A DNA stretch of 64,000 nt from Thermoanaerobaculia bacterium (GCA_036375075.1 DASUSN010000216.1:10302-74301); one strand, 5' to 3'. Shown: positions 7,307-61,365, counted from the first letter of the stretch. The notes: generated from the letters alone by a model not told the origin. Numbers and translations: made by a program.

Positions 7307-7405
7307 CGAGTCTTCGGGTCGTCGAGTCGTCAAGTCGTCAAGAGATCGCTCGACCAGCTGAAGACTTAGACTCGACGACTCGAAGACTCGACGACTCGAC
7401 GACTC
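7306..7405. repeat. Hairpin built from inverted arrays of the 8-bp unit GTCGTCGA/GTCGTCAA (3 direct + 4 inverted copies) abutting the moeB start codon
   Basis: gacgagtcttcgggtcgtcgagtcgtcaagtcgtcaag ... cttagactcgacgactcgaagactcgacgactcgacgactc ATG. Same unit recurs at 28681-28720. Confidence 0.6.
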
Positions 7406-10288: not shown

Positions 10289-10392
10289 CAGGGGACAGGG
10301 GACAGGGCGCAGGGCGCAGAAGACCGCCGCACTCCCACGTCGTGGGCAAGGCGGGGGCCTTCTGTCCCCTGCGCCCTGCGCCCTGCCCCCTG
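10289..10392. repeat. Inverted arrays of 7-bp tandem units (GGGGACA/GGGCGCA x4 versus their complements x4) around a 36-bp spacer in the divergent promoter region between the HK-like gene and hbd
   Basis: caggggacaggggacagggcgcagggcgcagaag ... cttctgtcccctgcgccctgcgccctgccccctg. Confidence 0.55.
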
Positions 10393-18900: not shown

Positions 18901-19725
18901 GTGAAGTGGCTCATCACCGGTGCCGGAGGGATGCTCGGCACCGACCTCCGCGATGAGCTCGCCCGCCGCGGCGAGCCGGTCGTCGCCCTCACCCGCACCG
19001 ATCTCGACGTGACGGACTCGCGTCTCGTGGATGCGGCCGTGGCCGAGCACGCACCCGACGTGATCGTGAACTGCGCGGCGTACACGAAGGTCGACCTCGC
19101 GGAGTCCGAGGAGGCGGCGGCGAACGCGATCAACGGGTCGGCGGTCGAGCTGCTCGCATCCGCGGCGAACGAAGCGGGCGCGCTGCTCGTGCAGGTGTCC
19201 ACGGACTTCGTCTTCGACGGCTCGAAGCGCGAGCCGTACGAGGCCGGCGACCCCACCAACCCCCTCTCCGCGTACGGCCGCTCAAAGCTCCTCGGCGAGG
19301 TCGCGGCGCGTCACGCGGAGAAGCATCTGATCGTGCGCACGTCGTGGCTGTTCGGCACGCACGGTCCGAACTTCGTGGAAGCCATCCGCAACCAGATCCG
19401 CAAGGGTGTGGACTCGCTGCGCGTGGTGAACGACCAGCGCGGCCGGCCGACGTACACGCCGCACCTCGCGCGGGCGATCGTCCGCCTGGCGCTGCAGTCG
19501 GCGCAGGGCATCGTGCACTACGCCGACGCGGACGAATGCTCGTGGTACGACTTTGCGTGCGCGATCGCTCCCGGGTTCCCGATTCACCCGGTGACGAGCG
19601 AGGAGTTTCCCCGTCCGGCGCGGCGACCCGCCTATTCGGTGCTGTCGACGGGCCGCTACGAGGAGTTGACCGGGGTCCGTCCGGACTCGTGGCGGGACGG
19701 GCTGCGCGAATACCTCCGGGAGTGA
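18901..19725 (+). CDS. rfbD: dTDP-4-dehydrorhamnose reductase
   Basis: GTG start immediately after the tatA stop. MKWLITGAGGMLGTDL...YTKVD...SAYGRSK (SDR-type RmlD pattern). Confidence 0.8.
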   Translation: MKWLITGAGGMLGTDLRDELARRGEPVVALTRTDLDVTDSRLVDAAVAEHAPDVIVNCAAYTKVDLAESEEAAANAINGSAVELLASAANEAGALLVQVSTDFVFDGSKREPYEAGDPTNPLSAYGRSKLLGEVAARHAEKHLIVRTSWLFGTHGPNFVEAIRNQIRKGVDSLRVVNDQRGRPTYTPHLARAIVRLALQSAQGIVHYADADECSWYDFACAIAPGFPIHPVTSEEFPRPARRPAYSVLSTGRYEELTGVRPDSWRDGLREYLRE

Positions 19726-19737
19726 TGAACGATGAGA

Positions 19738-19763
19738 GATGAGTGATGAGCTCATCACTCATC
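19738..19763. terminator. Perfect 26-bp palindrome GATGAGTGATGAGCTCATCACTCATC between convergent rfbD and tlyA; probable bidirectional terminator
   Basis: Read directly from sequence; flanked by further GATGAG/CATCAC repeats (19726-19790). Confidence 0.55.
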
Positions 19764-19775
19764 TGTCATCACTCA

Positions 19776-20510
19776 TCACTCGTCCTGCGTTGACGCATAC
19801 ATCAGATACTCCATGTTCCCCTCCGCGCCACGGATCGGGCTTTCGATCACCGCCTTGACGTCGAAGCCGTTCTCCCTCGCGAACTCGACGACCGAGTCGA
19901 CGGCCGCCTGCCGCTTCGCGTCGTCGCGCACGATGCCGCCCTTGCCGACGTCGTGCTTGCCGACCTCGAACTGCGGCTTGATCAGCGCCACCAGCTCGCC
20001 GCGGAGGAACCCGGCCACCGCCGGCAGGATCAGCTTCAGGGAGATGAACGACACGTCGATGGAGGCGAACTCGATCGGCTCGTCGAAGTTCTCCGGCTGC
20101 AGGTAACGCGCGTTCACCTTCTCGCGGTTGACGACGCGCGGATCGTTCCGCAGAGAGACGTCGAGCTGCCCGTAGCCGACGTCGATCGCATACACCTTCG
20201 CCGCGCCGTGCTTCAACATCACGTCCGTGAAACCGCCGGTGGATGCACCAATATCCGCACACGTTTTCCCGTGTACATTGATGTCGAACATTTTCAGCGC
20301 GTGCGCGAGCTTCATCCCGCCGCGGCCGACCCATGGATGCTCGAGCTCCGCGACCGTCACCTCGTCGTCCCCGGCGACGTTCGCCCCGGCCTTGTCGACG
20401 AACTGCCCGTTCACCAGGACCCGCCGGGCCATGATCAGCGACTGCGCCTTCGACCGGGTGTCGACCAGACCGCGCTCGACGAGCGCGACGTCGAGGCGCT
20501 GTTTCTTCAT
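19776..20510 (-). CDS. tlyA: TlyA-family rRNA 2'-O-methyltransferase (hemolysin A homolog)
   Basis: S4 domain N-terminus (RLDVALVERGLVDTRSKAQSLI) + FtsJ-like MTase (CADIGASTGGFTDVML). Confidence 0.85.
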   Translation of the reverse strand: MKKQRLDVALVERGLVDTRSKAQSLIMARRVLVNGQFVDKAGANVAGDDEVTVAELEHPWVGRGGMKLAHALKMFDINVHGKTCADIGASTGGFTDVMLKHGAAKVYAIDVGYGQLDVSLRNDPRVVNREKVNARYLQPENFDEPIEFASIDVSFISLKLILPAVAGFLRGELVALIKPQFEVGKHDVGKGGIVRDDAKRQAAVDSVVEFARENGFDVKAVIESPIRGAEGNMEYLMYASTQDE

Positions 20511-30295: not shown

Positions 30296-31072
30296 TTGCG
30301 GCTTCTTCAGGTCGACGCGTTCACCGCGCAGGCATTCCGCGGCAATCCGGCCGCGGTGTGCCTGCTGGACGCCGAGCGCGACGAGCGCTGGATGCAGGAC
30401 GTCGCCGCGGAGATGAACCTCTCCGAGACGGCGTTCCTGCTGCGCCGCGCCGACAGCGACTACTCGCTGCGCTGGTTCACACCCGAGGTCGAAGTGGCGC
30501 TCTGCGGACACGCGACGCTCGCGAGCGCGCATGCGCTGTACGAGGAGCACGGCCTCACGTCGGTGCGCTTCCATACGAAGAGCGGAGTGCTCACCGCGGA
30601 TCGCACCGGAAACGCCATCGAGCTCGATTTCCCCGCGATCCTCGAAGAGCGCGCCGAACCGCCCGAGGGCCTCCTCTCCTCCCTCGGCGTCACAGCCCCG
30701 GTTTACGTCGGCCGGAACAAGTTCGACTATCTCGTGGAAGTGGCGTCCGAGGACGAGGTGCGCGCGCTCGACCCCGATCACACGCAGCTCGGGCGCATCC
30801 CCGTGCGCGGCGTGATCGTCACCAGCCGCTCGCGCGAATACGACTTCGTGTCGCGATTCTTCGCGCCGGGGTCGGGTATCGCCGAAGACCCGGTGACGGG
30901 GTCGGCGCATTGCTGCCTGACGCCGTACTGGGCGCCGAAACTGGGGAAGGACGCAATGACCGCGTTCCAGGCGTCGAAGCGCGGAGGCGTGGTTCAGGTG
31001 CGCCTCGCAGGCGGTCGCGTAAAGCTCGGCGGCGCAGCGGTGACGGTCCTCCGGGGCGAGCTCACGGCGTGA
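30296..31072 (+). CDS. PhzF-family isomerase (phenazine biosynthesis-like protein)
   Basis: MRLLQVDAFTAQAFRGNPAAVCLL...LSETAFL...ALCGHATLASAH are PhzF/DAP-epimerase-fold motifs. TTG start. Confidence 0.75.
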   Translation: MRLLQVDAFTAQAFRGNPAAVCLLDAERDERWMQDVAAEMNLSETAFLLRRADSDYSLRWFTPEVEVALCGHATLASAHALYEEHGLTSVRFHTKSGVLTADRTGNAIELDFPAILEERAEPPEGLLSSLGVTAPVYVGRNKFDYLVEVASEDEVRALDPDHTQLGRIPVRGVIVTSRSREYDFVSRFFAPGSGIAEDPVTGSAHCCLTPYWAPKLGKDAMTAFQASKRGGVVQVRLAGGRVKLGGAAVTVLRGELTA

Positions 31073-31076
31073 GGTT

Positions 31077-31550
31077 CTGTCGCCCGCTACACGGGCTCGT
31101 TCCGCTGTGCGCCGGTCCCCCCGGCTGAAGCCGCAATGACGTTCACTTTAGGCGAGAGCTCACCCCTCATCCGCCTTCGGCACCTTCTCCCCTCGCCGGG
31201 GAGAAGGGCTCTCGACACACGAGCCCTGCGAGCGCCCTTCTGCCTCGCGCCCGGGAGAAGGCTCTCGATGCACACTTCCCCTCGAGCGCCCTTCTCCCCT
31301 CGTGAGGGGAGAAGGTGCCGAAGGCCGGGGAGAAGGGCTCTCGACACACGAGCCCTGCGAGCGCCCTTCTGCCTCGCGCCCGGGAGAAGGCTCTCGATGC
31401 ACACTTCCCCTCGAGCGCCCTTCTCCCCTCGTGAGGGGAGAAGGTGCCGAAGGCGGATGAGGGGTTGTTCTCGCCTAAAGTGAACGGCATTGCGACTGAA
31501 GCCGGGGGGCCGGCGCGCAGCGGACGAGCCCGCGTAGCGGGCGACAGGAC
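31077..31550. repeat. About 475-bp composite palindromic element: outer inverted arms of about 100 bp enclose two 129-bp tandem units, each made of three hairpins with a CTTCTCCCC...GGGGAGAAG stem; MITE-like or giant structured intergenic repeat
   Basis: Left arm tgtcgcccgctacacgggctcgttccgctgtgcgccggtccccccggctgaagccgcaatgacgttcactttaggcgaga... pairs with right arm ...tctcgcctaaagtgaacggcattgcgactgaagccggggggccggcgcgcagcggacgagcccgcgtagcgggcgaca. Internal 129-bp period measured (31198 versus 31327). ORFs predicted inside (31136..31483 etc.) are repeat artefacts. Confidence 0.7.
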
Positions 31551-31572
31551 GACGTGCGATAGCATCGCGCGC

Positions 31573-32589
31573 ATGACCATCCGGGAGATGCTCGAGCGGA
31601 TCGAGTACGACACCCTCGTTCCGCAGGCGGCCAAGAGCGCCGAGACGCGCGGCCGCGACCGGGCCGAGGACGAAGACGACATCCGCCCGTCGTACCAGCG
31701 CGACCGCGACCGCATCATCCACTGCAAGGCCTTCCGGCGGCTCAAACACAAGACCCAGGTGTTCCTCGCCCCCGAGGGCGACCACTACCGGACGCGGCTC
31801 ACCCATGTGCTGGAAGTGACGCAGATCGCACGCACCATCGCCAAGAGCCTCCGCCTCAACGAAGTCCTCACCGAGGCCATCGGCCTCGGCCACGACCTCG
31901 GCCACTCCGCCTTCGGCCACGCCGGCGAGGCCGCGCTGAACAAACTGGTCCGCGGCGGCTTCGATCACTACCGGCAGTCGGTGCGCGTCGTGGAGAAGCT
32001 CGAAGACCTCAACCTCACCGTGGAGGTCCGCGACGGCATCCTCAAGCACTCCAAGGGTGAGAAAGGCGAGCTGCTGCGGACGCGGCCGAAGGCGCGCGCC
32101 CTCACGCTCGAGGGGGACATCGTCCGCATCTCCGACATCATCGCCTACGTCAACCACGACATCGACGACGGCATCCGCGCCGGGATCATCCACGAGGACG
32201 ACATCCCCGCCGATATCCGCAAGACCCTCGGCGACACGAAGAGCCGGCGCATCGACCGCATGGTGCACGACGTGATCGACGCGACGCTCGCGAACGACTA
32301 CGAGGCCATCATGATGACGCCCGAGGCGCTGGAGGCGCTGGAGGCGCTGCGGACGTACATGTTCGAGAACATGTATCTGATCCGCGAGGTGCGCGGCGAG
32401 TTCGAGAAGGCACAGAAGATCCTCGCCGCGCTGTTCGAGTACGTCGTCGCGCATCCGGACGAGTTCCTCGACACGTCCGGCGACGAGCCGGTCGAACGGC
32501 TGGCGATCGACTTCATCGCGGGGATGACCGACCGCTACGCGCTGAACCTGTACTCGAAGCTGTTCCTGCCGCGGCCCTGGGTAAGCTGA
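31573..32589 (+). CDS. dgt: dGTP triphosphohydrolase-like HD-domain protein
   Basis: HD motif region RLTHVLEVTQIARTIA...GLGHDLGHSAFGH and a dNTPase-type C-terminus. Start taken at MTIREML (31573); the upstream part of ORF 31444.. lies in the repeat. Confidence 0.75.
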   Translation: MTIREMLERIEYDTLVPQAAKSAETRGRDRAEDEDDIRPSYQRDRDRIIHCKAFRRLKHKTQVFLAPEGDHYRTRLTHVLEVTQIARTIAKSLRLNEVLTEAIGLGHDLGHSAFGHAGEAALNKLVRGGFDHYRQSVRVVEKLEDLNLTVEVRDGILKHSKGEKGELLRTRPKARALTLEGDIVRISDIIAYVNHDIDDGIRAGIIHEDDIPADIRKTLGDTKSRRIDRMVHDVIDATLANDYEAIMMTPEALEALEALRTYMFENMYLIREVRGEFEKAQKILAALFEYVVAHPDEFLDTSGDEPVERLAIDFIAGMTDRYALNLYSKLFLPRPWVS

Positions 32590-36972: not shown

Positions 36973-37000
36973 CCCAAGCGTCGATGGGATTCTTAGGGGA

Positions 37001-37027
37001 GTGCGGAGGGCAGTCGATCGCCTCCGC
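37001..37027. repeat. REP-like palindromic element GTGCGGAGG-(n)-CCTCCGC (family also at 46006-46068, 46099-46119 and 46272-46290)
   Basis: gtgcggagggcagtcgatcgcctccgc. Copies at 37001-37019 and 46099-46119 share GTGCGGAGG[AG]GCAGTCGATC (19 of 21 positions), same orientation. Confidence 0.5.
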
Positions 37028-37172
37028 TTTTGTAGTTACACGGTCGCGCGACCGGCGCTGCGCGCACGTCGGCTCACGCCCTCGCATAGATCCGAATGGC
37101 ACCCAGTAGCGGGCATGGCGCTCCTATCAGCATGGGTTGTGCTTATCCTGTCAAACAGCGAGCCGCCGGTGC

Positions 37173-39419
37173 TCAGCCGGTTCCGACCGGGGCCGTGCTC
37201 ACGAGTGACTGCGTTCCTGAGGCATCTGGCTGCACAACCACTGGTTGTACGACCATGGGTTGCACGACGATTGGCTGTGCGACGACTGGCTGCGCCACCA
37301 CCGGATGCGCGATGACTGGCCGCACGACGACCGGGCGCACGACGACCGGCTGCGGCGTAGCCGGTAGAGGGGCAGGTGGCGGAGGCGCAGCCGGTGGCGG
37401 CGCGGGTGACTCGACCGCACTTTTCGCTTTCGCGAGCAGGTTCTCGAACTCCTTCGGCTTCCAACGACGCAGGCTCGTCAGGGTCGAATCGGTTGCTGCC
37501 ACTTGGTAAGCGGCGGGCTGAAGATGCAGTGCGAGTTCGAGGTGCTGCCAGCCGAGAGTGAGATAAAGAGTCCTGTCCACCGGTATCGTAGTTTTCGCCG
37601 CGAGGACGCCGAAGGTGGAGGCGACATTGAATTGCGTGTCCGCGTTCGGACCGTGTCTGTAGCCCAACAGGGCCAGATATGCGTCGTGGGGGCCGATTGT
37701 CCCGACTTCCGCGGCGATGCCGATCCTCATCACGTCGACCGGTGGCCGGGCATACGAAATGTACGTCTTGATGCGTCTGCAGTCCGCCTCGGTGCGGTGG
37801 ATCGCGCCGGCATCCGCCTTTTCCATTGCCTTGAGCAGAGTGTCGGCTTCGGCGAGTGCTTTCCCGATGTCGCCGCGTTGATAGTGGATGTACGCCAGCC
37901 GGTAGGAAGCAGCGAAGAGGACCGGGGCGGCTGGTCCATCACTGTGCGGCATGCGGTTCTTGGCGACCTCGAACTGCTCGATGGCAGGGCCTAGAAGCTG
38001 CGCGTCGTGTAGCATCGCTCCAAAATTTGCGCGTGCCGCCGCGTGCTCCGGGTCATTCAGCAGCGCGCCGACAAGCAACTCCTGCGCACGCTTGTTATCT
38101 GAGCCCATCACCGATTCGGCGGCCTTGTTCATCGCATCGCTCACCCAGCTGGCCGTTCCGGTCATTGCCCGAATCCGGACCGGGTGGCGAATCTCGAGCT
38201 GCAGCAACTGGTACAGCAACCAGACCGCCGCCGAATCGAGGAGGTCCAAGTATGGTGCCGTATCGGCGGGTGCGGGTGCAATCGTCAGATCCAGTGGCTC
38301 GGGCGCCTTCTTCGGCGCCTCGGGCGGCTTCGTGCCGAAGTCGCGCTGCCAGAGCGTGGTCGTGCTCGCGACTTTGTTCCGTTCGCTCAGTACGAGCGTC
38401 AGGCCCGCTCCTTTTTCATCGATCGCCGGATGGGTACAGCCGGTGAGGATGAGCGTCCGGCGCCAGTAGATTAGCGACAGCAGTGACAGCAGGCCTTTTA
38501 GCCAGCCGAATACTGAGGGGATCGCTGAGGTGATCGCAGCCGGGACCTCGAAGCTCGTGAGCGTGGCCGACGGGAACTGCACGTTCGAAGGCTGCAGTCG
38601 CGTCAGCGCAACGAGTTGTTGCTGCAGATACAGCGACGCGCCCGCCCCAGGAAATGCAGTATCACCCGTCAGATTCTCCACGCGCAGGTGCGGGTAGAGC
38701 ACGAAATGTCGCAGCAACAGCGGGGCGAGCAACGCGACCAAAATAAGCACGAGCGCTGTGTTGACCGGGTGGAGCACAATGACGTTCAGCCAGCGTGGCA
38801 ACGTGAGGTAACTCAGCTCCGCCGGAATCTCTTTCACCGGCGGCTTCTTCGCGGCCTCGGTCAGCTGCGTCAGCGCCTCGCCGTGCATCCCGGCGCGTGA
38901 GAGACCCAATGCAGGCGCGAACGGGTCGACCAGCGGGCGAAGCTCCACGGGGATCTCCCGAGCCGGATATTTTTTTGCGGTCGCTTGCAGCGCCTGAAGG
39001 GCTTGGTCGTACAGCTTCAGCCTGTACAGAACAAGCGCCTCAGCAAATGGGTCGGCAGGTTTCACTGCCGCCGCAGACGCCGTCGTTGGTAAAGCCTGCG
39101 GATCAAGCGCGAGCGCCGCCAGCTTCTCAGCTTGCGCGCGTTGCTTGTCGACGCTCCCAAAATTCTTTGCGAGCTCGAGGTGGCGTGCAATGTCCGCGCG
39201 CGTGGTGGCGATTTTCTCGATGCCCTCCCGTGAGCACGGCTCGGCCGGATCGATCTTCAGCCGTGCGGCATACGCCTGCTCCGCATCGGCGTAGCGCCTC
39301 GCCTTCAGCAGGTCATCGGCAGCGGCGCATGGATTGGCGCGCACCGCAACAGGCAGCAGCAAGAGTACGGCGATGACGACAGGTTTTGCTATCGAACGCA
39401 CGGGCCACCTCGGTTGCAC
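37173..39419 (-). CDS. Large signal-peptide-bearing membrane protein with TPR-like segments and C-terminal Pro-Val pentapeptide (PVVxQ) tandem repeats; low-GC island gene
   Basis: 748 aa. N-terminal signal peptide MQPRWPVRSIAKPVVIAVLLLLPVAVRA, internal TM helices (NVIVLHPVNTALVLILVALLAPLLL; VFGWLKGLLSLLSLIYW), TPR-like blocks, C-terminal PQPVVVRPVVVRPVIAHPVVAQPVVAQPIVVQPMVVQPVVVQP (15-bp DNA tandem repeats at 37200-37330). GC visibly lower than flanks. Confidence 0.55.
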   Translation of the reverse strand: MQPRWPVRSIAKPVVIAVLLLLPVAVRANPCAAADDLLKARRYADAEQAYAARLKIDPAEPCSREGIEKIATTRADIARHLELAKNFGSVDKQRAQAEKLAALALDPQALPTTASAAAVKPADPFAEALVLYRLKLYDQALQALQATAKKYPAREIPVELRPLVDPFAPALGLSRAGMHGEALTQLTEAAKKPPVKEIPAELSYLTLPRWLNVIVLHPVNTALVLILVALLAPLLLRHFVLYPHLRVENLTGDTAFPGAGASLYLQQQLVALTRLQPSNVQFPSATLTSFEVPAAITSAIPSVFGWLKGLLSLLSLIYWRRTLILTGCTHPAIDEKGAGLTLVLSERNKVASTTTLWQRDFGTKPPEAPKKAPEPLDLTIAPAPADTAPYLDLLDSAAVWLLYQLLQLEIRHPVRIRAMTGTASWVSDAMNKAAESVMGSDNKRAQELLVGALLNDPEHAAARANFGAMLHDAQLLGPAIEQFEVAKNRMPHSDGPAAPVLFAASYRLAYIHYQRGDIGKALAEADTLLKAMEKADAGAIHRTEADCRRIKTYISYARPPVDVMRIGIAAEVGTIGPHDAYLALLGYRHGPNADTQFNVASTFGVLAAKTTIPVDRTLYLTLGWQHLELALHLQPAAYQVAATDSTLTSLRRWKPKEFENLLAKAKSAVESPAPPPAAPPPPAPLPATPQPVVVRPVVVRPVIAHPVVAQPVVAQPIVVQPMVVQPVVVQPDASGTQSLVSTAPVGTG

Positions 39420-39874
39420 GGATTGTTTCCGGCATTATGCAATAGGAGGGACCGCGGCGCGAACTTCCCGGCCGTAAGGCAAATACTCTGCTTTTTACGC
39501 AACGGGGCCCTCAACGCCGCATAGCAGCCTGGCCTCGCGCCTGCGACGTGCGTACCTCTCCGGGAGAGATGACTGGGCATTTCATCGCACGCGCCGCGTT
39601 GCGCGCCGCTGCATGTGCGAACGCCCGCGTGGCGGAAGCGGGTTGGTCAGGTGCCCGTCCGTTCGGGATGGCGTCGGCAACTAATGCGGTCAGGACGACC
39701 GCGCGGCCGCATCGTTCAAGAGGTCTTCCAACTCGTTCTTTCGGCGTCGCTGAACACGCGTGGTGAGGGTTCCGGCCGCTCACGCATGATGGTGGGGTGC
39801 GCCTCGCTCGCCTGTAGCACGGTGCATTTGGCGGCCGGAGCGTATTCCGCCCTGCAGGGCCTGCCCGACGCAAA

Positions 39875-41359
39875 GTGACGCGGCCGAACAACTCGCAGCA
39901 GAACAAGGATGCGGTTGATGCCGTCTACACGGCATCAGCGACACCACCCGACTACATCATGATCCTCGGCTCGATCGACATCGTTCCGCACCAGGATCTG
40001 CTCAACCCTCTCTTCGGCGGTGACGACGACGACGAGCACGCCTGGGGCGATCTGCCGTATGCCTGCGATGCGCCGTACAGCCAGAACATCAGCGACTTCA
40101 CTAAGCCGACGCGCGTAATCGGCCGCTTGCCGGACATTCAGGCGATGAAGAACACCGCTTATTTCGTGAAGTTGCTTGACAATGCCGCGAAATGGGTCTC
40201 GCTCGCACCGTCGAGCTATGACGATTACTTCGCCGTTTCTGCATTAACGTGGCAGAAGTCAACGAAGCTCAGCGTCAAGAAGACCTTCGGCTCGAACGAG
40301 AAGGTGTTCGTCTCGCCGACGGCCGGACCTCCGTGGAACGCACCGGACCTCGCGCCGCTTGCGCATTTCATCAACTGTCACGGCAACTCCGGACGGTCTG
40401 CGTTTTACGGCGAAGATCCGAACGCCACGGGCGAAGCGAAATACCCCATCGCCCATCAGACAATTCACGTACGCAACTTTATCGAACCCGGAACCGTGGC
40501 CGCGGTCGAGTGCTGCTTCGGTGCCGAACTCTACAAACCGCACGCGGACATCGACCCGGAACACGGGATTTGCCAAGAGTACCTGTACGACGACGCTTAC
40601 GGCTTCTTCGGCGCCACGACCATCGCGTATGGTCCCGCGGTCGGCCATGGTGCGGCGGACATTATCTGCGCCGCCTTCCTCAAGCACGTCCGTGCCGGCG
40701 ACTCGCTCGGCCTAGCGGCATTGGCGGCTCGTCAGGATTTCATCAAAGCCTGCGATGTAATGGATCCGATCGACCTGAAAACCCTCGGCCAGTTCAATCT
40801 CCTCGGCGATCCGTCGATCCATCCCGTTCATGCGGCTGCGAAAGCAACGGGCAAGACGCTCGCGGCGGCAAAGAAGTCTCCCGAGGCGCTTAACACCGCG
40901 CGTGCAGAACAGCCGGCGCTCGATGACGGTTATCGTCAACGGCGCGAGGATCTGCGGGCGAGCGCGGCCCGTGTCGCGGGGAAGGTGTCGATGGCGTCGA
41001 CACACGTACCCGATCCGCTGATGGACTCACGTGCCCGCGCCGCTGCACAGGCGGCCGGTATCACGCCGTCGGATGTGAAGACGTTCGAGTTGCAGAGGCC
41101 GACCAACGCGCCGAGAAGGAAGGCTATGGCCGGTATGAAGGCCGTCATGGCGCCCCCGGCCCCTGCGAGGATCTGCGTCGTCACCGGCCGGACTTCGGAT
41201 CAACAGCCTCCGGCAGCACATCAAGTCCCGGCGAAAGGCAAAGGTGTGACAAAAGGGAAGGACGGTGGGCATCCCGGACCGTCACCCTTCGTCGTGGCGG
41301 TCATGAAAGAGAGGCTCGACGGCAGCATGACCATGGTCCGGAAGGTGTTCAGCAAGTAA
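39875..41359 (+). CDS. Gingipain-like (peptidase C25 / clan CD) cysteine peptidase without signal peptide; low-GC island gene
   Basis: Same landmark order as the secreted C25 at 13193..16186: PDYIMIL (catalytic-domain start), VIGRLP, His-Gly dyad context FINCHGNSG, Cys context AVECCFG 45 aa later, and LLGDPSI. No N-terminal signal peptide; GTG 39875 or ATG 39958 are possible starts. Confidence 0.6.
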   Translation: MTRPNNSQQNKDAVDAVYTASATPPDYIMILGSIDIVPHQDLLNPLFGGDDDDEHAWGDLPYACDAPYSQNISDFTKPTRVIGRLPDIQAMKNTAYFVKLLDNAAKWVSLAPSSYDDYFAVSALTWQKSTKLSVKKTFGSNEKVFVSPTAGPPWNAPDLAPLAHFINCHGNSGRSAFYGEDPNATGEAKYPIAHQTIHVRNFIEPGTVAAVECCFGAELYKPHADIDPEHGICQEYLYDDAYGFFGATTIAYGPAVGHGAADIICAAFLKHVRAGDSLGLAALAARQDFIKACDVMDPIDLKTLGQFNLLGDPSIHPVHAAAKATGKTLAAAKKSPEALNTARAEQPALDDGYRQRREDLRASAARVAGKVSMASTHVPDPLMDSRARAAAQAAGITPSDVKTFELQRPTNAPRRKAMAGMKAVMAPPAPARICVVTGRTSDQQPPAAHQVPAKGKGVTKGKDGGHPGPSPFVVAVMKERLDGSMTMVRKVFSK

Positions 41360-41369
41360 TATTGCGGCG

Positions 41370-41600
41370 ATGCGTGTTCGCGGGACCGTTGTCCACCGGC
41401 TCTTCGGCAAGAACTCGAAGAGCGAGCACACGGCGGTCTATCTCGAGACGCCATCGGGCGACTCATACCGCCTCCAACGTAGCGGCGGGAACCCGTTTTT
41501 CGACGAAACACTCGAGTTGCTCGTGGGTAAGACAATTGAGGGAAGCGGCACGTTGCGTGGGAAAAGCCTTTATCTCGGGAGTTGGAAAGAACTCAAGTAA
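41370..41600 (+). CDS. Small hypothetical protein (76 aa) immediately downstream of the C25-like peptidase; low-GC island gene
   Basis: MRVRGTVVHRLFGKNSKSEHTAVYLETPSGDSYRLQRSGGNPFFDETLELLVGKTIEGSGTLRGKSLYLGSWKELK. 10-nt gap after the peptidase stop, same strand, same low-GC composition. Confidence 0.4.
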   Translation: MRVRGTVVHRLFGKNSKSEHTAVYLETPSGDSYRLQRSGGNPFFDETLELLVGKTIEGSGTLRGKSLYLGSWKELK

Positions 41601-41679
41601 CGTAGAGCCGACCGGTTTCGCGGCCGGCTTCCCAACACCAAGGCTCTAGCAAGCGAGTCGGCAGCGGCGAGATCGACGC

Positions 41680-41946
41680 CTACGTGGTCGTGGTCGGGGG
41701 GGTGTCCGCCATGGTGGTCGTGCTCGTGTCCGTCGGCGACATCTGCTCGTAGGGGCCGGCCGTGCCTTCCACGCCGGTGGATGGCTGCGGCGGCACCTGG
41801 CCGGACGCGGCGCCGGACGGCGTTTCCGTCTGCGACGACGGCGGGTTGGTCACGTCGGGCGGCGCGTTCTGGTAGTCGCGGGGCACGGGCTCGCCGCGGC
41901 AGGCGGCCAGGGCCACGAGCATCGCGACTACAATCATCCTTCGCAT
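41680..41946 (-). CDS. Small lipoprotein with Thr/Pro-rich tail
   Basis: MRRMIVVAMLVALAAC (lipobox) ... TDTSTTTMADTPPTTTT. Start codon overlaps the divergent start at 41945. Confidence 0.45.
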   Translation of the reverse strand: MRRMIVVAMLVALAACRGEPVPRDYQNAPPDVTNPPSSQTETPSGAASGQVPPQPSTGVEGTAGPYEQMSPTDTSTTTMADTPPTTTT

Positions 41947-42796
41947 GACAAGGATGAGCTTCAACGCACGTGCCACCGCGCTTCTGCTGCTGCTCGCCAT
42001 GCCCGTCTTCGCACAGGTCGCGGAGGGCGACCGTCACTACGCCGCCCGCGCGGAAGGCGCGTCCGGGGCGCGCGCGAAAGCCGAGCACATCGACGCCGCG
42101 ATCGCCGCCTATCAGAAGGCGATCGCGGCCAATCCGAACGACATCGAGGCGCACTGGAAGCTCCTCCGCTCCTACCGTTACAAGGGTGCGTACGTCGCCG
42201 CGAACGCCGAGCAGAAGAAGCAGATCTACGGGATGGCAAAGACCGCGGGCGAGAAGGCCCTCGCGGTCGTGAACGCCCGCCTCGGCACGAATGCGAAGTC
42301 GAGCGAGCAGCAGGTGGCCGAGGCCGCGAAGAGGGTCCCGGGCGCCGGCGAGGTCTTCTTCTGGGACTCGGTGAACTGGGGGGAGTGGGCGCTCGCGTAC
42401 GGGAAGATGGCCGCGGCCCGGCAGGGCGCGGCGGACCGCATCAAGCGCGGCGCGACGATCGCCCTGCTCGTCGACCCGCGCATGGAGCTGGGCTCGCCGG
42501 CCCGCGTCCTCGGCCGCCTGCACGACCAGACCCCGCGCATCCCGTTCGTGACCGGCTGGGCCTCGTCGAAGGAAGCGGTGCGGTTCCTGAACGAATCGCT
42601 GAAGATCGACCCGACGAACAAGCTCACGCTCGTGTTCCTGGCCGAGGCGATGGTGGCGGCGGATTCGTCGAAGAAAACCCAGGCGCTGCAGATGCTGCGC
42701 TCGGCCGTCAACACGCCCGTCCATCCCGACTACCCCGTCGAAGACGCCGCGTCGATCGAGGACGCGAAGGCGCTGCTCAGGAAATGGGGCAGTTGA
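41945..42796 (+). CDS. Secreted TPR-like repeat protein
   Basis: Signal peptide MTRMSFNARATALLLLLAMPVFAQV; helical repeat blocks (AIAAYQKAIAANPNDIEAHWKLLRSY...). Confidence 0.5.
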   Translation: MTRMSFNARATALLLLLAMPVFAQVAEGDRHYAARAEGASGARAKAEHIDAAIAAYQKAIAANPNDIEAHWKLLRSYRYKGAYVAANAEQKKQIYGMAKTAGEKALAVVNARLGTNAKSSEQQVAEAAKRVPGAGEVFFWDSVNWGEWALAYGKMAAARQGAADRIKRGATIALLVDPRMELGSPARVLGRLHDQTPRIPFVTGWASSKEAVRFLNESLKIDPTNKLTLVFLAEAMVAADSSKKTQALQMLRSAVNTPVHPDYPVEDAASIEDAKALLRKWGS

Positions 42797-42805
42797 GCCG
42801 GCGGC

Positions 42806-45800
42806 TCACTGCTGCTCCGCGGGAATCGCGGCGATGAACTCGGAGTCGCCGCTCGGCTCGACCACCGTCGCGAAGCCGACGCCCGTGCCCGCGATCACCG
42901 TGATGCGCACCGTGGTCGTCTCGTCCAGCTTCACGCCCAGCGCCGCCTCGAGGTCGTTGACCAGCCACACCTGATCCTCGGGCACGCCCTGCTCGACGCT
43001 CCCGCCGATCGGCTGCCCCGTGCGCGTGCGCACCGAGAAGCGGAACGTCGCCGGGATGGTGCCGATGTTCACGACGCCGGCGTTCACGCGCCGCCCCGCG
43101 ACTGTGGACGCGGGGATGCCGACGAGCGCCAGCTCCGCGCTCTGCGTGGACGCGGTCGCCGAGTCGAGCTTCGTGAGCGGCGCTTCGAGCGAGGCGCTCG
43201 CGCTGTGCGCGACGTCGGACGTCTTCATCACCGCGACCGGCGCGCGCCCCTCCCGGTGCTCGAGCCATAGCGTGCCGACGGTACCCGGCCGCGCGAACAG
43301 GCTGCGCACGACGTCCGGCCAGCGCAGCGTCTGCCGCGGCGCCAGCGTCAGCCGCCGGTCGATGCCGGTGTTGCCCGTGACGTACCGCAGCGTCACGCGC
43401 ATGGGATCGCGATAGGGGTTGTGAATCGTCAGGTCCGACTGCCAGTACGAGTCGCCCACGCCGCCGATGCTGCCGACGGCGGGAAAGACCATCCGCGCCA
43501 GGCCGGTGGCCACGAGCTCCTTCTTGTCCGGCAGCCGGATCAGGCCGAGGTAATCAGCGACGGCGCGCGGCTTCGCGTCGGTTCGGCGCGTCCACAGCTC
43601 CACGCCGCGCACGGAGCGATGGAAGCCGTACATGTCGTCGATGTACGCCGACACGGCCTGCGCGCGCAGGTCGTTGGTCACGCCGTCGAACATGTCGAAC
43701 AGCTCCGGCGAGCGGCGGAGGATCACCTTCGGCTTCGTCCGCTCCAGCGCGGCGATCGTCTCCGCCTGGAAGTCGCGGGGCGAGAGGATCGGCACCTGAT
43801 AGAAGCGCGTCGGGTTCGGGCGGTCGGCGAAGAAGTAGAACGCGGGCTGGTTCGAGAAGTCGAAGATCGGCTCGTTCGTCTTCGTCAGGTCCCGGACGTT
43901 CGCCACCACGTCCGTGATCCGCCACTGGACCGCCTCGGCGTTCGGATCGCGATCGACCCGCAGCACGCGGCCGTAGTAGCGCGTGAAGTCGTGCAGCCGG
44001 GCGTTGACCAGGTCGGGGATCCAGAACAGCACGCCGACCACCGGCACGGCCATCACGGCCAGCGCCGTTACGAATGCGCGCGTGCCCTGTCCGCCGGTCC
44101 GCCACACGCCGCGGAGCGTCCGCACCAGGATCACCGCGAGCAGCACGATCAGCGGCCCGATGAGGAACGCCGCGAAGTACTGGTGGCGGAACGACGCCCG
44201 GCCGAACGCCGTCCTCTGGGCGACCGTGGCGAACACGGTGAGCACGAGCAACGCGAAATCGAGGGCGTCCACACGCCGCCGGAGCCAGCGGACGATGAAG
44301 TACACGGCGGCGATGGCAATCACCAGCGGGCTGAGGACGAGATGGAACTTCTCCCACAGCACGAAGTCCGCGAGGGTGTGCAGCGTGAGGTCTTTGCGGA
44401 AGGTGGAGACGAGGTCCGGGAACGGCAGCGACCACACCGCGTCGATGATCCGCGGGATGGTCACGAACGACGTCACCGCGAAGTCGTCGAGCGCGCCGTG
44501 CATGGCCAGATACGCCGCAAACGGTGCGGCGCCGATCAGGACGCCGAGGAGGAAGAAGAGCGCCCCCTGCGCGGGCGCGAGCCCGTCCCATGCGACCCGC
44601 TTCGACGCGATCCACACCAGCAGTGACGCCGCCAGCGCGCCGGCGACCGAGTACGCGCCGATCTCGTACGAGAAGAAGAGCGCCGCGCCGCTGAAGATCC
44701 CGGCGAAGACGGCGGAGACCCGGCTGCGCCGCCGCAGCGCGTTCCAGAACAGCGCCACCGCCGCGACCTGGAAGAACGTGCGGTTGTTCTCCGCCGTCGT
44801 CCACGACCCCATGGCCACGCACAACAGCGCGAGCGGAATCGACTCGAAAACGGCCAGGCCGAGGAACCAGATCGCGACGCCGAGGAAGGCGCCGACGATC
44901 ACCGTGCGGGCCACGGCCACGTCGAGCGAGCGGCCGAAGATCTCCATCAGCCACGCGTCGAGCTGGCCGTCTTCCAGCATACCGTGCAGCGCGAACACGT
45001 CCCGGAACGGCACCTTGCCGCGCAGGTAGTCCGACGCCGGCCCGATCGACTCGCCGCGGTGGAAGAGGTCGATCCACTGCGACAACTGCGCGGTCGACGC
45101 GTAGCTGAAGAGGTAGATCAGCGCCGGGATGATCAGGTACGCCGCGAGCCGCCAGGCGCTCCGCGGCTTCATCGGACGGACGACGAGCGCGAGCGCCGCG
45201 CAGACGAGCAGCGTGATGGCCATGACCGGCCGCGCGGGCTTCAGGGGAATCCACACGGCCGCCAGGAACGGCAGCAGGACGATCGGCAGTGCCGCCACGG
45301 TCACGCGCTTGAACGTGTCCTCGGCGTCGCGTCCGAAGCTCAGCTCGGCCAGCTTCGCGATGAGCAGTGTCGCGGCCCAGAAGAGGGCCACGAACATCGC
45401 CACGAAGACGACTTCCAGAAAGAGCGTCGGGATGTGCGCGATGCGCCTGGCCGTGACCAGGTAGCGGAAGAACAGCCACGCCAGCGCCTCGGTGAACAGC
45501 AGCGCGTGATAGGGGCGGAGCTCCTCGCGGAACATCCGCCGGAGCCACAAGCGCGTCCGCGCGAAGCGCAGCAGCGCCGGCCCGCCGAACGAGATGGCGA
45601 GGGGGATGCCGAGGATCCAGCCCACCTTGCCGGTGGTCAGGTAAAAGAGCGGCGAGAAAAAGTACGGGACCGTCGCCAGCGGATGCGGGCGCCTGCGCAG
45701 CAACCGCTGCAGCCACACGGTGAGCGGCGGGACGAGCAGGAAGAACAGCGCCGCGCCGAGGTAGTCGCGGAGCTTGGAGTAGCGCTCGATCGTGACCAGG

Positions 45801-45943
45801 CCGATCGCCACGGGATCGGTGGGCGGGAGGTTGCGGAAGAGGAGCGTGATCGACAGGAAGACGCCCGCGGCGAGGCAGAAAGCGGCGATCCAGACGAAGG
45901 CGGCCGCGATGCGGTCGTAGAGTTTCAGTCGGTCGCGTTCCAC
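42806..45943 (-). CDS. Large polytopic membrane protein (about 1045 aa) with C-terminal extracytoplasmic beta-rich region; function unknown
   Basis: More than 15 hydrophobic helices after a likely GTG start near 45943 (VERDRLKLYDRIAAAFVWIAAFCLAAGVFL). The first about 110 codons of ORF ..46282 overlap the REP-like repeats and the methyltransferase 3' end and are probably not translated. Confidence 0.5.
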   Translation of the reverse strand: MERDRLKLYDRIAAAFVWIAAFCLAAGVFLSITLLFRNLPPTDPVAIGLVTIERYSKLRDYLGAALFFLLVPPLTVWLQRLLRRRPHPLATVPYFFSPLFYLTTGKVGWILGIPLAISFGGPALLRFARTRLWLRRMFREELRPYHALLFTEALAWLFFRYLVTARRIAHIPTLFLEVVFVAMFVALFWAATLLIAKLAELSFGRDAEDTFKRVTVAALPIVLLPFLAAVWIPLKPARPVMAITLLVCAALALVVRPMKPRSAWRLAAYLIIPALIYLFSYASTAQLSQWIDLFHRGESIGPASDYLRGKVPFRDVFALHGMLEDGQLDAWLMEIFGRSLDVAVARTVIVGAFLGVAIWFLGLAVFESIPLALLCVAMGSWTTAENNRTFFQVAAVALFWNALRRRSRVSAVFAGIFSGAALFFSYEIGAYSVAGALAASLLVWIASKRVAWDGLAPAQGALFFLLGVLIGAAPFAAYLAMHGALDDFAVTSFVTIPRIIDAVWSLPFPDLVSTFRKDLTLHTLADFVLWEKFHLVLSPLVIAIAAVYFIVRWLRRRVDALDFALLVLTVFATVAQRTAFGRASFRHQYFAAFLIGPLIVLLAVILVRTLRGVWRTGGQGTRAFVTALAVMAVPVVGVLFWIPDLVNARLHDFTRYYGRVLRVDRDPNAEAVQWRITDVVANVRDLTKTNEPIFDFSNQPAFYFFADRPNPTRFYQVPILSPRDFQAETIAALERTKPKVILRRSPELFDMFDGVTNDLRAQAVSAYIDDMYGFHRSVRGVELWTRRTDAKPRAVADYLGLIRLPDKKELVATGLARMVFPAVGSIGGVGDSYWQSDLTIHNPYRDPMRVTLRYVTGNTGIDRRLTLAPRQTLRWPDVVRSLFARPGTVGTLWLEHREGRAPVAVMKTSDVAHSASASLEAPLTKLDSATASTQSAELALVGIPASTVAGRRVNAGVVNIGTIPATFRFSVRTRTGQPIGGSVEQGVPEDQVWLVNDLEAALGVKLDETTTVRITVIAGTGVGFATVVEPSGDSEFIAAIPAEQQ

Positions 45944-46005
45944 TCGGTGGCGAATATAGCAGGCGGCCCATCCGGAGACGCGGAGATGCCTGAGCGTTCC
46001 GCCAT

Positions 46006-46068
46006 TTGGAGTGCGGAGGCAGGCAGCCGCCTCCGCTTTCCTATTCGGAGCCTCCGCACTCCACAAGG
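46006..46068. repeat. REP-like nested palindrome TTGGAGTGCGGAGGC..GCCTCCGC..GGAGCCTCCGCACTCCA (same family as 37001-37027)
   Basis: atttggagtgcggaggcaggcagccgcctccgctttcctattcggagcctccgcactccacaag; partial copies at 46099-46119 and 46272-46290. Confidence 0.5.
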
Positions 46069-46076
46069 TCGCCCGA

Positions 46077-47196
46077 TCAGCCGACGAATGTGGCGGCGGT
46101 GCGGAGGAGGCAGTCGATCTGGGGGTCGGTCGCTCGCGTTCTTCGCGGGAAGAGCGCCGCGAGACGCGATTCGCGGTAGAGGTTCGCGCGATGCGGCCGG
46201 CGGGCGAGGATCGACAGACGCGCGAGGCGGGACCGCATGCGGGAGGGGAGCGCATTCGAAAGTGGCGGCGCGGCCTCCGCACTCCAGAGAGGATCGCGCT
46301 CGATGTCCTCGGCGCCGCGAGCGCGCGGGGGGAGCGGGCGGTCCGCCCGCGTCACGCGCGAGCCGCGTTTGCGCGCCGCGAGGATCACGTAGTCGCACGG
46401 GATGCGGCCGGAATCCACGAGCATCGCCTCGATCGTGCAGAGGATCTCCAGGATGGCCCGCTCGCGCGGCACTTCGAAGCGGAAGTGCTGGACGACGCCG
46501 TAGAGGAGATGCTGGAGGACGGTGCCGCCGATCTCCTTCCGCTCCAGCACTTCGAAGAACCGCGAGGTCAACCCGGGCAGCTCGTCGCTCCGCACCGCCT
46601 CGGTCGGATCGTTGGCGATCATCTCCTCCACGGTCGGCCGCGCTTTCGGCGGAAAGCCGAGGCAGCCGAGGAGCGTGTTGATGATCGAGAGCACGTCGTC
46701 GCCGTACTGAAAACGCTTCGGGCCGACATACTCGTTCATCACCAGCGTCGCGTCCGGCTTCATCGTCCGCTCGATCTGCGCGAATGCGTGCTCGAGGTGC
46801 TCCACGTGATGCAGCACCGAGTGCGCGACGACCACGTCGTACGCCCCGGCCGGCAGCTCGTCGCGATTCAGATCGACGACCCCGTAGCGGATCTTCGGAA
46901 TGTCCCGCGCGGCTTCGCGGGCGCGCGCCACCGCGTGCTCCGCGAAGTCCACCGCGTCGATGTGCGCGACGAACGGCCATTGCGCCACCGCGCGCTCCAG
47001 CCACCCTTCGCCGCAGCCGAGGACGAGCACGCGGAGGTCGTTCCCCACGAACCACCGATGCGCCCAGGACGACAGCCAGTCCCGCGCGGGGTCGCCCGTG
47101 GCCCGCTCGTTGAGGTGCATGAGGACGGCGGTATTCGCCATCCACGTGGTGTGTGCGAGGTGCTCCGAGCGCCGTTCGTCGTTCCAGACGGTCATG
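46077..47196 (-). CDS. Class I SAM-dependent methyltransferase
   Basis: Motif I VLVLGCGEGWLERAV, motif II/III (VVVAHSVLHHV). Start MTVWNDE (47196) or MANTAVL (47142). C-terminal about 70 aa are low-complexity and overlap REP-like copies. Confidence 0.65.
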
Positions 47197-61002: not shown

Positions 61003-61226
61003 GCGCCTAATGTAGTGCGCGCAAACGAGAAGTGCCGCGAGACACGCTCCGCGGCACTCCGTGGCGGTGGTTGTCGTTCGCTCGTTGCGTCGGGGCGACT
61101 GCATGTTCCCCTGGGGCGTTACTGCTGAGAAGGAAGGGTCTGCCCGCTGCCCTGGCGCGCCGCGAGGGGCGAGCTCGCCTTCCATTCCACCGTCGCCCGG
61201 ATGAATTGCAGCGCGTGTGCCATCCG

Positions 61227-61365
61227 AGTTCCTCGGAGTGCCTCGGAGTGCCTCGGGTTCCTCGGAGTGGTCGGCCGAGGAACGAGAGACTCCCGAGGAG
61301 CTCCGAGGAACTCCGAGGAACCCGAGGAACCCCGAGGAACTCCGAGGAACCCGAGGAACCGCCGC
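61227..61365. repeat. Inverted tandem-repeat array of the 10-11-bp unit TTCCTCGGAGT (4 direct copies) and its complement CTCCGAGGAA (8 copies), ending 13 bp upstream of the MocR-type regulator start
   Basis: gttcctcggagtgcctcggagtgcctcgggttcctcggagtgg ... ccgaggaacgagagactcccgaggagctccgaggaactccgaggaacccgaggaaccccgaggaactccgaggaacccgaggaacc. Confidence 0.65.

Follow-up and report, generated by a model that had tools for sequence, protein, structure and literature searches.

The phzF-dgt spacer and its palindrome

The stretch of DNA analysed here (the window, 64,000 nucleotides of a Thermoanaerobaculia bacterium, with a G+C content of 63-70%) carries housekeeping genes only and, at a single locus, a large imperfect palindrome that fills most of the spacer between a PhzF-family coding sequence and dgt, the gene of a dGTPase-like HD phosphohydrolase (Table 1). 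This placement had been proposed in an original prediction made from the sequence, and a renewed reading of the sequence, repeat finders and Pfam matches of both flanking genes agree on it. The palindrome sets in 2 nt past the phzF stop codon and ends 22 nt ahead of the dgt ATG; a conserved TAGCATCGCGCGCATG leader of dgt lies 24 nt past it. The Dgt protein of the window is 100% identical to P0001, a protein of a Thermoanaerobaculia MAG, and has dozens of relatives at 85-99% identity from soil metagenomes and from Thermoanaerobaculia and Acidobacteriota MAGs; an exact-match look-up returned no entry for the window's Dgt or for P0001.

The arms of the palindrome mirror each other as reverse complements, as predicted, but are longer than the ~100 bp originally ascribed to them: they measure ~128 nt and are ~91% complementary (120 of 140 columns are identical in a global arm-against-arm alignment, with three 1-nt indels). 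Each arm is layered, with part of a small hairpin outermost, then an outer layer, a family-specific extension and a REP module. The copy is 443 bp long (31091-31533), or 477 bp when the small hairpin is counted in.

Between the arms, and overlapping them, lie two 129-bp tandem units. That they are present and 100% identical to each other (repeat finders) is as originally described; the three hairpins that had been assigned to each come down, on counting, to two complete ones and half of a third (2.5 per unit). The whole element has five complete hairpins, three of them perfect and two variant, plus one orphan arm. Hairpins are set apart by two related 28-nt spacers, and TRF picks up a 54-nt sub-period inside the tandem units. 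Counted together with its complement, the 10-mer CCTTCTCCCC has 7 occurrences in the 64 kb of the window, every one of them within the element, where 0.19 would be expected. The inner hairpins are near-perfect palindromes, so that the alternating orientation by which BIMEs are recognised cannot be assigned to them individually. (That this is not a CRISPR array, as had been stated with confidence at the outset, is evident from repeats that are hairpin arms in alternating orientation and from spacers that are ~75-100% alike.) The junction of the 129-bp duplication (…GAAGGC/CGGGGAG…) has 2-3 nt of microhomology, and the perfect duplication probably arose recently, by replication slippage or by unequal exchange between the element's own repeats.

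Table 1. Features of the phzF-dgt region, in window coordinates
Feature	Position	Strand	Sequence or composition	Remarks
PhzF-family CDS, upstream flank	30296-31072	+	stop TGA 31070-31072	Pfam PF02567 PhzC-PhzF, E = 2.4e-66
Palindrome	31074-31550			477 bp, imperfect
Left arm	31074-31201
Outermost left arm	31076-31090		TCTGTCGCCCGC + TAC	left half of the 27-nt hairpin that is solitary in L132 (2944-2970)
Left outer layer	31091-31122		ACGGGCTCGTTCCGCTGTGCGCCGGTCCCCCC	mirror copy at 31504-31533
Left family-specific extension	31123-31162		GGCTGAAGCC GCAATGACG TTCACTTTAGGCGAGAG CTCA	common to L125, L129, L131, L134, L130 (alignment A1)
Left REP module	31163-31207		tail CCCCTCATCC, mini-hairpin GCC-TTC(G)-GGC, REP hairpin CCTTCTCCCC-TCGCC-GGGGAGAAGG	matches S. 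meliloti canonical REP
Perfect hairpin	31183-31207		CCTTCTCCCC/GGGGAGAAGG
129-bp tandem unit, copy 1	31195-31323		X' arm, spacer S1, variant hairpin, spacer S2, perfect hairpin, truncated linker GTGCCGAAGGC
Variant hairpin	31235-31261		CCTTCTGCC/CGGGAGAAGG	in copy 1
Perfect hairpin	31290-31315		CCTTCTCCCC/GGGGAGAAGG	in copy 1
129-bp tandem unit, copy 2	31324-31452		orphan arm, variant hairpin, perfect hairpin
Orphan arm	31327-31336		GGGGAGAAGG	in copy 2
Variant hairpin	31364-31390		CCTTCTGCC/CGGGAGAAGG	in copy 2
Perfect hairpin	31419-31444		CCTTCTCCCC/GGGGAGAAGG	in copy 2
Right REP module, inverted	31419-31464		CCTTCTCCCC-TCGTGA-GGGGAGAAGG TGCCGAAGGC GGATGAGGGG
Right arm	31426-31550
Right family-specific extension	31465-31503		TTGTTCTCGCCTAAAGTGAA CGGCATTGC GACTGAAGCC	alignment A1
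Right outer layer	31504-31533			mirrors 31091-31122
Outermost right arm	31534-31548		GTA + GCGGGCGACAGG	right half of the small hairpin that is solitary in L132
dgt, dGTPase-like HD phosphohydrolase, downstream flank	31573-32589	+		Pfam HD + HD_assoc

Folding and coding capacity

The element folds with a stability well beyond chance, which was the expectation on which its fold had been put up for checking: as RNA its minimum free energy is -383 kcal/mol, against -223 +/- 7 for shuffled sequences (z = -23.8), and as DNA the fold has z = -21.8. Rfam at gathering level gives no match in the whole window, and a permissive search of the locus gives two sub-threshold miRNA models only (E > 0.5). Promoter and terminator scans find no sigma-70 consensus and no intrinsic-terminator consensus. 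The alternative reading as a large structured RNA, which had been offered from the start, finds no support apart from the fold that any palindrome trivially has: no Rfam family matches, and the element is missing in a 99%-identical relative (L132, discussed below). Non-coding as it is, the element also belongs to no described RNA family.

Predicted reading frames that cross the element are artefacts, as had been supposed, and have no relatives (a protein search with a 115-aa ORF crossing the element, used as query because spurious ORFs might reveal other copies, gave no matches). ORFs 31136-31483 (+) and 31160-31402 (-) and an extended dgt start giving a 381-aa product are artefacts of this kind, and the proper annotation for the element is a repeat region, not genes. 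No transposase, RAYT or Y1 enzyme is found among the window's 43 ORFs of high GC3 (third-position G+C of the coding type), and no recurrent transposase adjoins the modules across 127 loci.

A dispersed family of REP-module doublets

The repeating module of the family, of ~45-60 nt, consists of a C-rich tail (CCCCTCAYCC), a mini-hairpin of 3-5 bp and a hairpin with a 10-bp stem (CCYTCTCCCC / GGGGAGARGG), and the basic element of 150-230 bp is made of two such modules in inverted orientation flanking a 28-nt spacer. It is this REP-module doublet that is the unit of the family, and not one mobile unit of 475 bp as originally envisaged. Modules from Thermoanaerobaculia carry an extension, CTCTCGCCTAAAGTGAACG.CATTG. 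In alignment A1, the core GGGGAGARGGT-(mini-hairpin)-GGRTGAGGGG is common to all copies, the rhizobial copies and the Deinococcus consensus included; the extension, (T/C)CTCGCCTAAAGTGAACG.CATTG, is found in 10 of 11 acidobacterial-type arms and is missing from the rhizobial arms; the layer 31091-31122 / 31504-31533 is confined to the window copy, and a separate comparison also finds no homologue of it in any other copy.

Of 142 modules from 91 loci, 122 have a perfect small stem in the linker that connects the tail with the main hairpin. This stem comes in 12 different sequences (GCC, GGC, GCCC, CCC, CGC, GGCC and others), its loop is mostly TGCC or TTC(G), and the sequences of tail and main stem are kept. 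Because the mini-hairpin stem varies and still pairs, while tail and main stem are fixed, the mini-hairpin can be thought of as conserved in structure and the rest of the module as conserved in sequence, a pattern that would be expected of a folded single strand recognised by a protein.

Copies at other loci were found by motif scans. Scanning a genome collection with an 18-mer of the outer arm gave six matches, five of them due to chance and one a real relative: a 230-bp palindrome of the same architecture in an Acidobacteriota MAG (L125, 2072-2300), built on a CCCTCTCCCC / CACCCGGCC variant, with arms of 55 nt that are 95% complementary. A first metagenome scan with 23 specified bases found no match; a second, looser one yielded L129, L130 and L131. 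L129 (1201-1380) and L131 (668-815) are two different loci of one soil metagenome sample, 85-89% identical to the window core, and each consists of one doublet with a 28-nt spacer of the window type in its middle (CTCTCGA-13 nt-TCGAGNGC); L130 is a solo module plus a truncated module. In L129, L131, L125 and L134 (an orthologous locus, see below) module, spacer and inverted module follow one another (the REPIN layout), and the window copy is likewise so arranged, with extra internal hairpins. Placement is extragenic throughout: the window copy is bounded by the stop codon of phzF and the start of dgt, and the other four lie between ORFs or at ORF ends. The existence of copies at unrelated loci (L125, L129, L131, L130) supports the part of the original MITE reading that had the element as a non-autonomous palindromic repeat, here one of a dispersed family; membership in the MITE class does not follow, since neither a target-site duplication nor a transposase-derived terminal inverted repeat was found.

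If orientation is set by the asymmetric loops of the hairpins, L129 and L131 have the 13 nt in the middle of their spacer inverted relative to the window; an inversion of this kind corresponds to a flip of the loop between short inverted repeats.

The window copy is larger than every other copy, and has the hairpin-plus-spacer unit in extra copies with a 54-nt period. The family may have a low copy number for a REP in its source genome: there is one locus in 64 kb, and 21 kb of a relative (L137) contain no copy. Scans of IMG/VR for the Acidobacteriota-type linker plus extension returned nothing, a related alphaproteobacterial variant, or chance matches. (A link to phages through 'viral' hairpin matches was considered and discarded, the matches being alphaproteobacterial GTA-type clusters with REPs in their spacers.) A literature search for the motif strings turned up no relevant paper.

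Relation to known repeat systems

The closest described relatives are elements of the REP/REPIN/BIME/RIME type, not MITEs. A blastn search of plasmid and chromid records with the element as query finds 884 places in 179 records, all from Rhizobiaceae or other Hyphomicrobiales; the matches cover the inner part of the query only, where the core is ~88% identical to rhizobial intergenic doublets. S. meliloti pSymB and a Shinella replicon, for example, have intergenic doublets of the form GCCCCTCATCCGCCTGCCGGCACCTTCTCCCC-loop-GGGGAGAAGG ... spacer ... CCTTCTCCCC-loop-GGGGAGAAGGTGCCGGCAGGCGGATGAGGGGC, which is the design of the window core. Its hairpin sequence places the element in the S. meliloti-type REP family, and its arrangement is that of a REPIN/BIME-like cluster. 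The canonical S. meliloti REP is ACCTTCTCCCCGCAAGCGGGGCGAAGG (Tobes & Pareja 2006, PMC1525189, Additional file 15), and its hairpin, ACCTTCTCCCC-loop-GGGGCGAAGG, is represented in the window by ACCTTCTCCCC-TCGCC-GGGGAGAAGG and CCTTCTCCCC-TCGTGA-GGGGAGAAGG. Stems of 10-11 nt are identical in the two systems, the tail is CCCCTCATCC in both, and the mini-hairpin has the same position; the rhizobial doublets built from this REP, as in the window, consist of two inverted modules around a spacer, are intergenic and have modules ~88% identical to those described here. The two differ in host (Acidobacteriota, class Thermoanaerobaculia, as against Alphaproteobacteria), in the loop of the mini-hairpin (TTCG in the window, TGCC in S. 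meliloti), in the window's extra extension (CTCGCCTAAAGTGAACG.CATTG) and unrelated 28-nt spacer, and in the multiplication of hairpin and spacer that makes the window element ~3 times longer. What is new is the host phylum, the acidobacterial module extension, and the unusually large, nested and duplicated form; the range of the Sinorhizobium type of REP extends to uncultured Acidobacteriota of soils.

The rhizobial doublets of the S. meliloti REP type are presumably the RIME elements of Osteras and co-workers (1995), for which a RIME1/RIME2 consensus and a restriction to Rhizobium and its relatives were reportedly given; if the present family is RIME, that host range no longer holds, the host here being one of the Thermoanaerobaculia. 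The plasmid records with the rhizobial matches bear no annotation of repeats. In S. meliloti 2011, 209 RIME, 256 'MOTIF' and ~150 Sm-repeats are annotated, and are transcribed (PMC3738161). REPs of S. meliloti are targets of ISRm19 and ISRm22, the latter inserting at the axis of the palindrome (PMC1525189).

A resemblance extends to Deinococcus. The D. radiodurans REP consensus is GGGAGAGGGCCTTGCGAAGCAAGGGGTGAGGG (PMC1525189, Additional file 15), which the design GGGGAGARGG-(mini-hairpin)-GGRTGAGGGG matches. This REP/SRE joins GGGAGAGGG, a small GC hairpin with a GAA-type loop, and GGTGAGGG; the same design recurs in the subfamily of L125 and L134 (GGGGAGAGGGTGGCCGAAGGCCGGGTGAGGGG) and also in the module of the window, where GGGGAGAAGG-TGCCGAAGGC-GGATGAGGGG has the D. 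radiodurans layout (the flanking module being GGTGCC-GAAG-GC-GGATGAGGGG). The likeness is to the 32-nt consensus, a comparison that did not extend to a partner CCCTCTCCC arm or a doublet form.

With REPINs (Bertels & Rainey 2011, PMC3116915) and enterobacterial BIMEs the window element shares two inverted REPs that make a long hairpin, the clustering of hairpins with conserved linkers, an extragenic location, non-autonomy, and an occupancy that varies between close relatives. It differs from them in having no linked RAYT (among the 43 window ORFs and across the 127 loci), in being a longer unit than typical REPINs, and in its apparently low copy number, one in 64 kb; a copy number of usually over 100 per genome is given for REPs by Nunvar 2010 (PMC2817692). 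The GTAG/CGTC tag of the superfamilies of Di Nocera 2013 (PMC3733652) is not found beside the hairpin, the flanks of which read ...GGCA/CCTTCTCCCC and GGGGAGAAGG/TGCC.... Like MITEs (Correia, ERIC, Nezha), the elements are small, non-coding, palindromic and dispersed, and can supply a neighbouring gene with its stop codon (TTTAG in L134); unlike MITEs, they have no demonstrable target-site duplication, no parent IS, and REP hairpins inside instead of simple terminal inverted repeats. The window copy, at 443 or 477 bp, also exceeds the MITE size of ~70-300 bp, within which the family relatives (150-230 bp) fall.

Site polymorphism among close relatives

Orthologous loci were retrieved through homologues of Dgt. 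The closest relative found, L132 (Dgt 99% identical in amino acid sequence, flanks 92-95% identical in nucleotide sequence), has a phzF-dgt spacer of 67 bp in which the sole notable feature is a 27-nt hairpin, TCTGTCGCCCGC-TAC-GCGGGCGACAGA. Its halves are the outermost 15 nt of the window arms (TCTGTCGCCCGCTAC - 443 bp - GTAGCGGGCGACAGG), so that the whole structure of the window sits on the axis of a hairpin that L132 carries alone. Window and L132 align as far as 31096 and again from 31557. Of the 27 nt that make up the L132 hairpin, 21 are found at either end of the element, with the loop as TAC in the left arm and as GTA in the right arm, an inverted and not a direct duplication. A direct target-site duplication, which had been suggested as a check on mobility, is not seen in this one filled/empty pair; the flanks GGT/ACGACG share no direct repeat. 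Outgroups are without the small hairpin, and the few bases directly beside it differ between the window and L132. The difference between the two loci could be due to insertion on the axis of the hairpin or to central deletion of a long palindrome in L132; what the comparison establishes is that the element is present or absent among very close relatives. (A supposed remnant of the family in L132, AAGCCGGCATTACG, was dismissed: by our own estimate a 9/10 match has a chance probability of ~0.25.)

More distant relatives show other arrangements. L133 and L139 have no spacer, the TGA of phzF overlapping the ATG of dgt (ATGA). L134 has a 190-bp copy of the other subfamily (that of L125), the TTTAG of which is the phzF stop codon. 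L140/L141 have an unrelated palindromic repeat (GTGTCATCCTGAGCGAAGCGAAGGACC...), and in L137, L138 and the P0037 contig other genes replace or adjoin phzF. (The 381-aa Dgt form of P0037 was entertained as a sign of the same element upstream and rejected, its N-terminus being unrelated and two genes being inserted there.) The phzF-dgt spacer, of which close relatives show at least six states, is a hot spot where several families of palindromic repeats occur, and intergenic spacers in these genomes turn over fast by way of different palindromic repeats.

Interpretation and rival explanations

In all likelihood the element is a lineage-specific, internally expanded REP-doublet repeat of the REP/REPIN/BIME/RIME type, non-coding, non-autonomous and dispersed. 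Its large size at this locus is accounted for by local multiplication of hairpin and spacer, by the 129-bp duplication, by the outer layer and by the small hairpin that L132 has on its own.

The copy might have been built partly on the spot: a 150-230-bp REP doublet would have entered the spacer, and host DNA beside it, comprising the small hairpin and the layer 31091-31122, would then have been copied in inverted form to the other side by fold-back priming or template switching, leaving only the inner ~380 bp (31123-31503) as family DNA. The outer layer unmatched in other copies, the inverted loop of the small hairpin and the 21 nt of it at each end are what such a history would produce. On the other hand, nothing like 31097-31122 occurs in L132, so that the layer is not demonstrably host DNA; GGCTGAAGCC and GCAATG.CG, lying just inside the layer, are common to L125 and L129 at other loci; and arms that differ by ~9% imply that the event was not recent. 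We regard construction on the spot as unlikely, though deserving some weight. An assembly artefact, with the 129-bp copy as an extra pass through a cycle of the de Bruijn graph or the entire palindrome as a chimeric inverted join, is distinctly unlikely. The suspicion arises from units that are 100% identical between arms that are not, and from the source, a third-party-assembled MAG: short reads count repeats of a 129-bp period unreliably, and the assembler may have miscounted the perfect 129-bp repeat (the number of element copies in short-read MAGs is in general unreliable). The palindrome itself is not of the assembler's making, since its arms diverge and homologous palindromes are found in independent assemblies (L125, L129, L131, L134); imperfect arms with indels are not produced by chimeric joins, and taking away the 129-bp copy would still leave a 348-bp palindrome with three hairpins.

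A classical MITE would be a deletion derivative of a DDE-transposase IS, ending in the inverted repeats GGCGAGAG.../...CTCTCGCC, flanked by a duplicated TA target (CTT-TA-GGCGAG ... CTCGCC-TA-AAG) and inserted into another palindrome. It is consistent with this that TTTAGGCGAG ... CTCGCCTAAAG is kept at the module boundary in all Acidobacteriota-type copies, and that removal of the inner part leaves a perfect palindrome, ...CGTTCACTT-TA-AAGTGAACG.... But a TA within inverted sequence is indistinguishable from a part of the inverted repeat, the rhizobial relatives are entirely without the extension, none of the sites retrieved is an empty one with a single TA, and neither a parent IS nor a transposase was found (window ORFs; 127 loci), so that a MITE origin is very improbable. 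The extreme stability of the fold, and the orientation of both flanking genes on the + strand, which makes transcription of the element probable, might also suggest a cis-acting RNA or DNA structure under local selection (a terminator or attenuator, an mRNA stabiliser, a binding site for a nucleoid protein or gyrase), kept for its function and not as a selfish repeat. REP and BIME elements of E. coli do have effects of the terminator/attenuator, mRNA-stabiliser or protein-binding type, and RIME and other intergenic repeats of S. meliloti are transcribed (PMC3738161). Against a local function, L132 manages without the element at 99% Dgt identity, the genes of L133 and L139 overlap with zero spacer, other relatives have unrelated palindromes or extra genes at the site, and neither a terminator or sigma-70 consensus nor an Rfam family was detected; the lack of the element, or of any spacer, in close relatives speaks against a required local function, nothing indicates that the locus needs the element, and we consider selection for such a function highly improbable.

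For the REP-doublet repeat, which remains the preferred reading, a mode of spread can be proposed. RAYT/IS200-type enzymes act on REPs as folded single-stranded DNA, and the present family would be spread or maintained by an enzyme that acts in trans and recognises this form of the conserved hairpin and tail, with the axes of palindromes as putative preferred points of entry; enlargement would probably have come about when repeats within the element slipped or exchanged unequally. The ~45-nt module is near-identical in Rhizobiaceae, in Thermoanaerobaculia and apparently in Deinococcus, and might be what a single mobilising or binding protein recognises, one that is passed horizontally from phylum to phylum; elements might also enter preferentially at hairpin axes and then grow by self-templated duplication, the window being a snapshot of that growth. 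This is a speculative and rather doubtful proposal, but a module so nearly identical in different phyla is the sole feature that could lead to something unexpected, namely which protein recognises it.

If transcription of phzF extends through the element, its product would contain a very stable RNA hairpin of ~480 nt. As REP/BIME elements would lead one to suppose, such a hairpin could act as an attenuator of read-through into dgt or as protection for the 3' end of phzF. Repeats of this kind can also reshape the ends of genes directly, as in L134, where the repeat supplies the stop codon of phzF.

The phzF-dgt spacer in relatives

Unrelated palindromic repeats have a hot spot in the spacer between phzF (a PhzF-family gene) and dgt (a dGTPase-like HD gene). 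In L140 (= L141), one of the loci of relatives reached through Dgt homologues, the palindromic repeat in this spacer is another one, GTGTCATCCTGAGCGAAGCGAAGGACCTTCC…GGAAGGTCCTTCGCTTCGCTCAGGATGACAC, with part of a third copy after it. In L134, another of these loci, where the spacer is a copy of a second subfamily of the REP-type repeat, a single product is called across the Urate_ox_N and PhzF genes, and its stop codon is the TAG within the repeat's CTTTAGGCGAG; the native gene end has thus been replaced by the repeat.

Immediately 5' of dgt, the sequence (GA)TAGCATCGC(G/C)CG(C/T)ATG is kept wherever there is a spacer (the window, L132, L134 and L138, the last three from relatives). No Shine-Dalgarno-like motif occurs here. 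The sequence TAGCAT lies 7 nt ahead of the dgt ATG and, judged from sequence, would suit a leaderless dgt transcript as a candidate -10 element. (A scan for consensus promoters returned none.)

Other palindromic repeats, and ORFs with weak or no Pfam matches

A second palindromic repeat family, …TGGAGTGCGGAGGC-NNNN-GCCTCCGCTTTC(C/G)TATTCGG…, has copies in the window and in L138, there in the dgt-HU spacer. The window copy is situated within a long ORF that has no match in a Pfam search, and the presence of a palindromic repeat inside this ORF makes its extent doubtful. A separate stretch of the window is lower in G+C (0.63 vs 0.66-0.70), and Pfam matches of its ORFs are weak or none.

Several intergenic hairpins in the window, L134 and L140 have arms built from short tandem oligonucleotide repeats, and often occupy the whole gene-to-gene spacer. 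Their design is constant while the repeat unit varies between loci: examples are GAGTCGTC octamers, CAGGGGA/CAGGGCG heptamers, GAGTGATGA, CCTCGGAGT / GAGGAAC and, in L134, CTCTGTG.

Coordinates of repeats, hairpins and associated reading frames
Feature	Locus	Coordinates	Strand	Remarks
Conserved sequence 5' of dgt	window	31555-31575
Different palindromic repeat	L140 (= L141)	1380-1480
Urate_ox_N/PhzF product	L134	1233-2804		523 aa
Second palindromic family	window	45990-46080
Second palindromic family	L138	2470-2590
Long ORF	window	42806-46282	minus
Lower-G+C stretch	window	37000-42000
ORF in this stretch	window	37173-39419	minus	748 aa; weak TPR match (Pfam)
ORF in this stretch	window	39875-41359	plus	494 aa; Pfam: none
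Tandem-arm hairpins	window	7307-7405, 10289-10392, 19720-19781, 61223-61353
Tandem-arm hairpin	L134	4020-4145
Tandem-arm hairpin	L140	2520-2600
Module variant	L135	5890-6015, 7900-7975
Module variant	L136	9650-9775

REP modules in viral-labelled and phage-like contigs

The CCTTCTCCCC/GGGGAGAAGG hairpin is present in >120 'viral' IMG/VR contigs (L001-L120). It is adjoined by an HK97-type capsid gene in 44 loci, with portal, prohead protease, GTA-gp10 and DUF2460 nearby; these contigs are alphaproteobacterial clusters of the gene-transfer-agent type, whose spacers contain REP modules. Phage-like contigs L135 and L136 carry another variant of the module, CCCCCTCACCCGGCCTTCGGCCGACCTCTCCC-loop-GGGAGAGGTCGACGGCG.AGCCGGCGGGTGAGGGGG, which shows that the design of tail, mini-hairpin and main hairpin exists in many sequence subfamilies.
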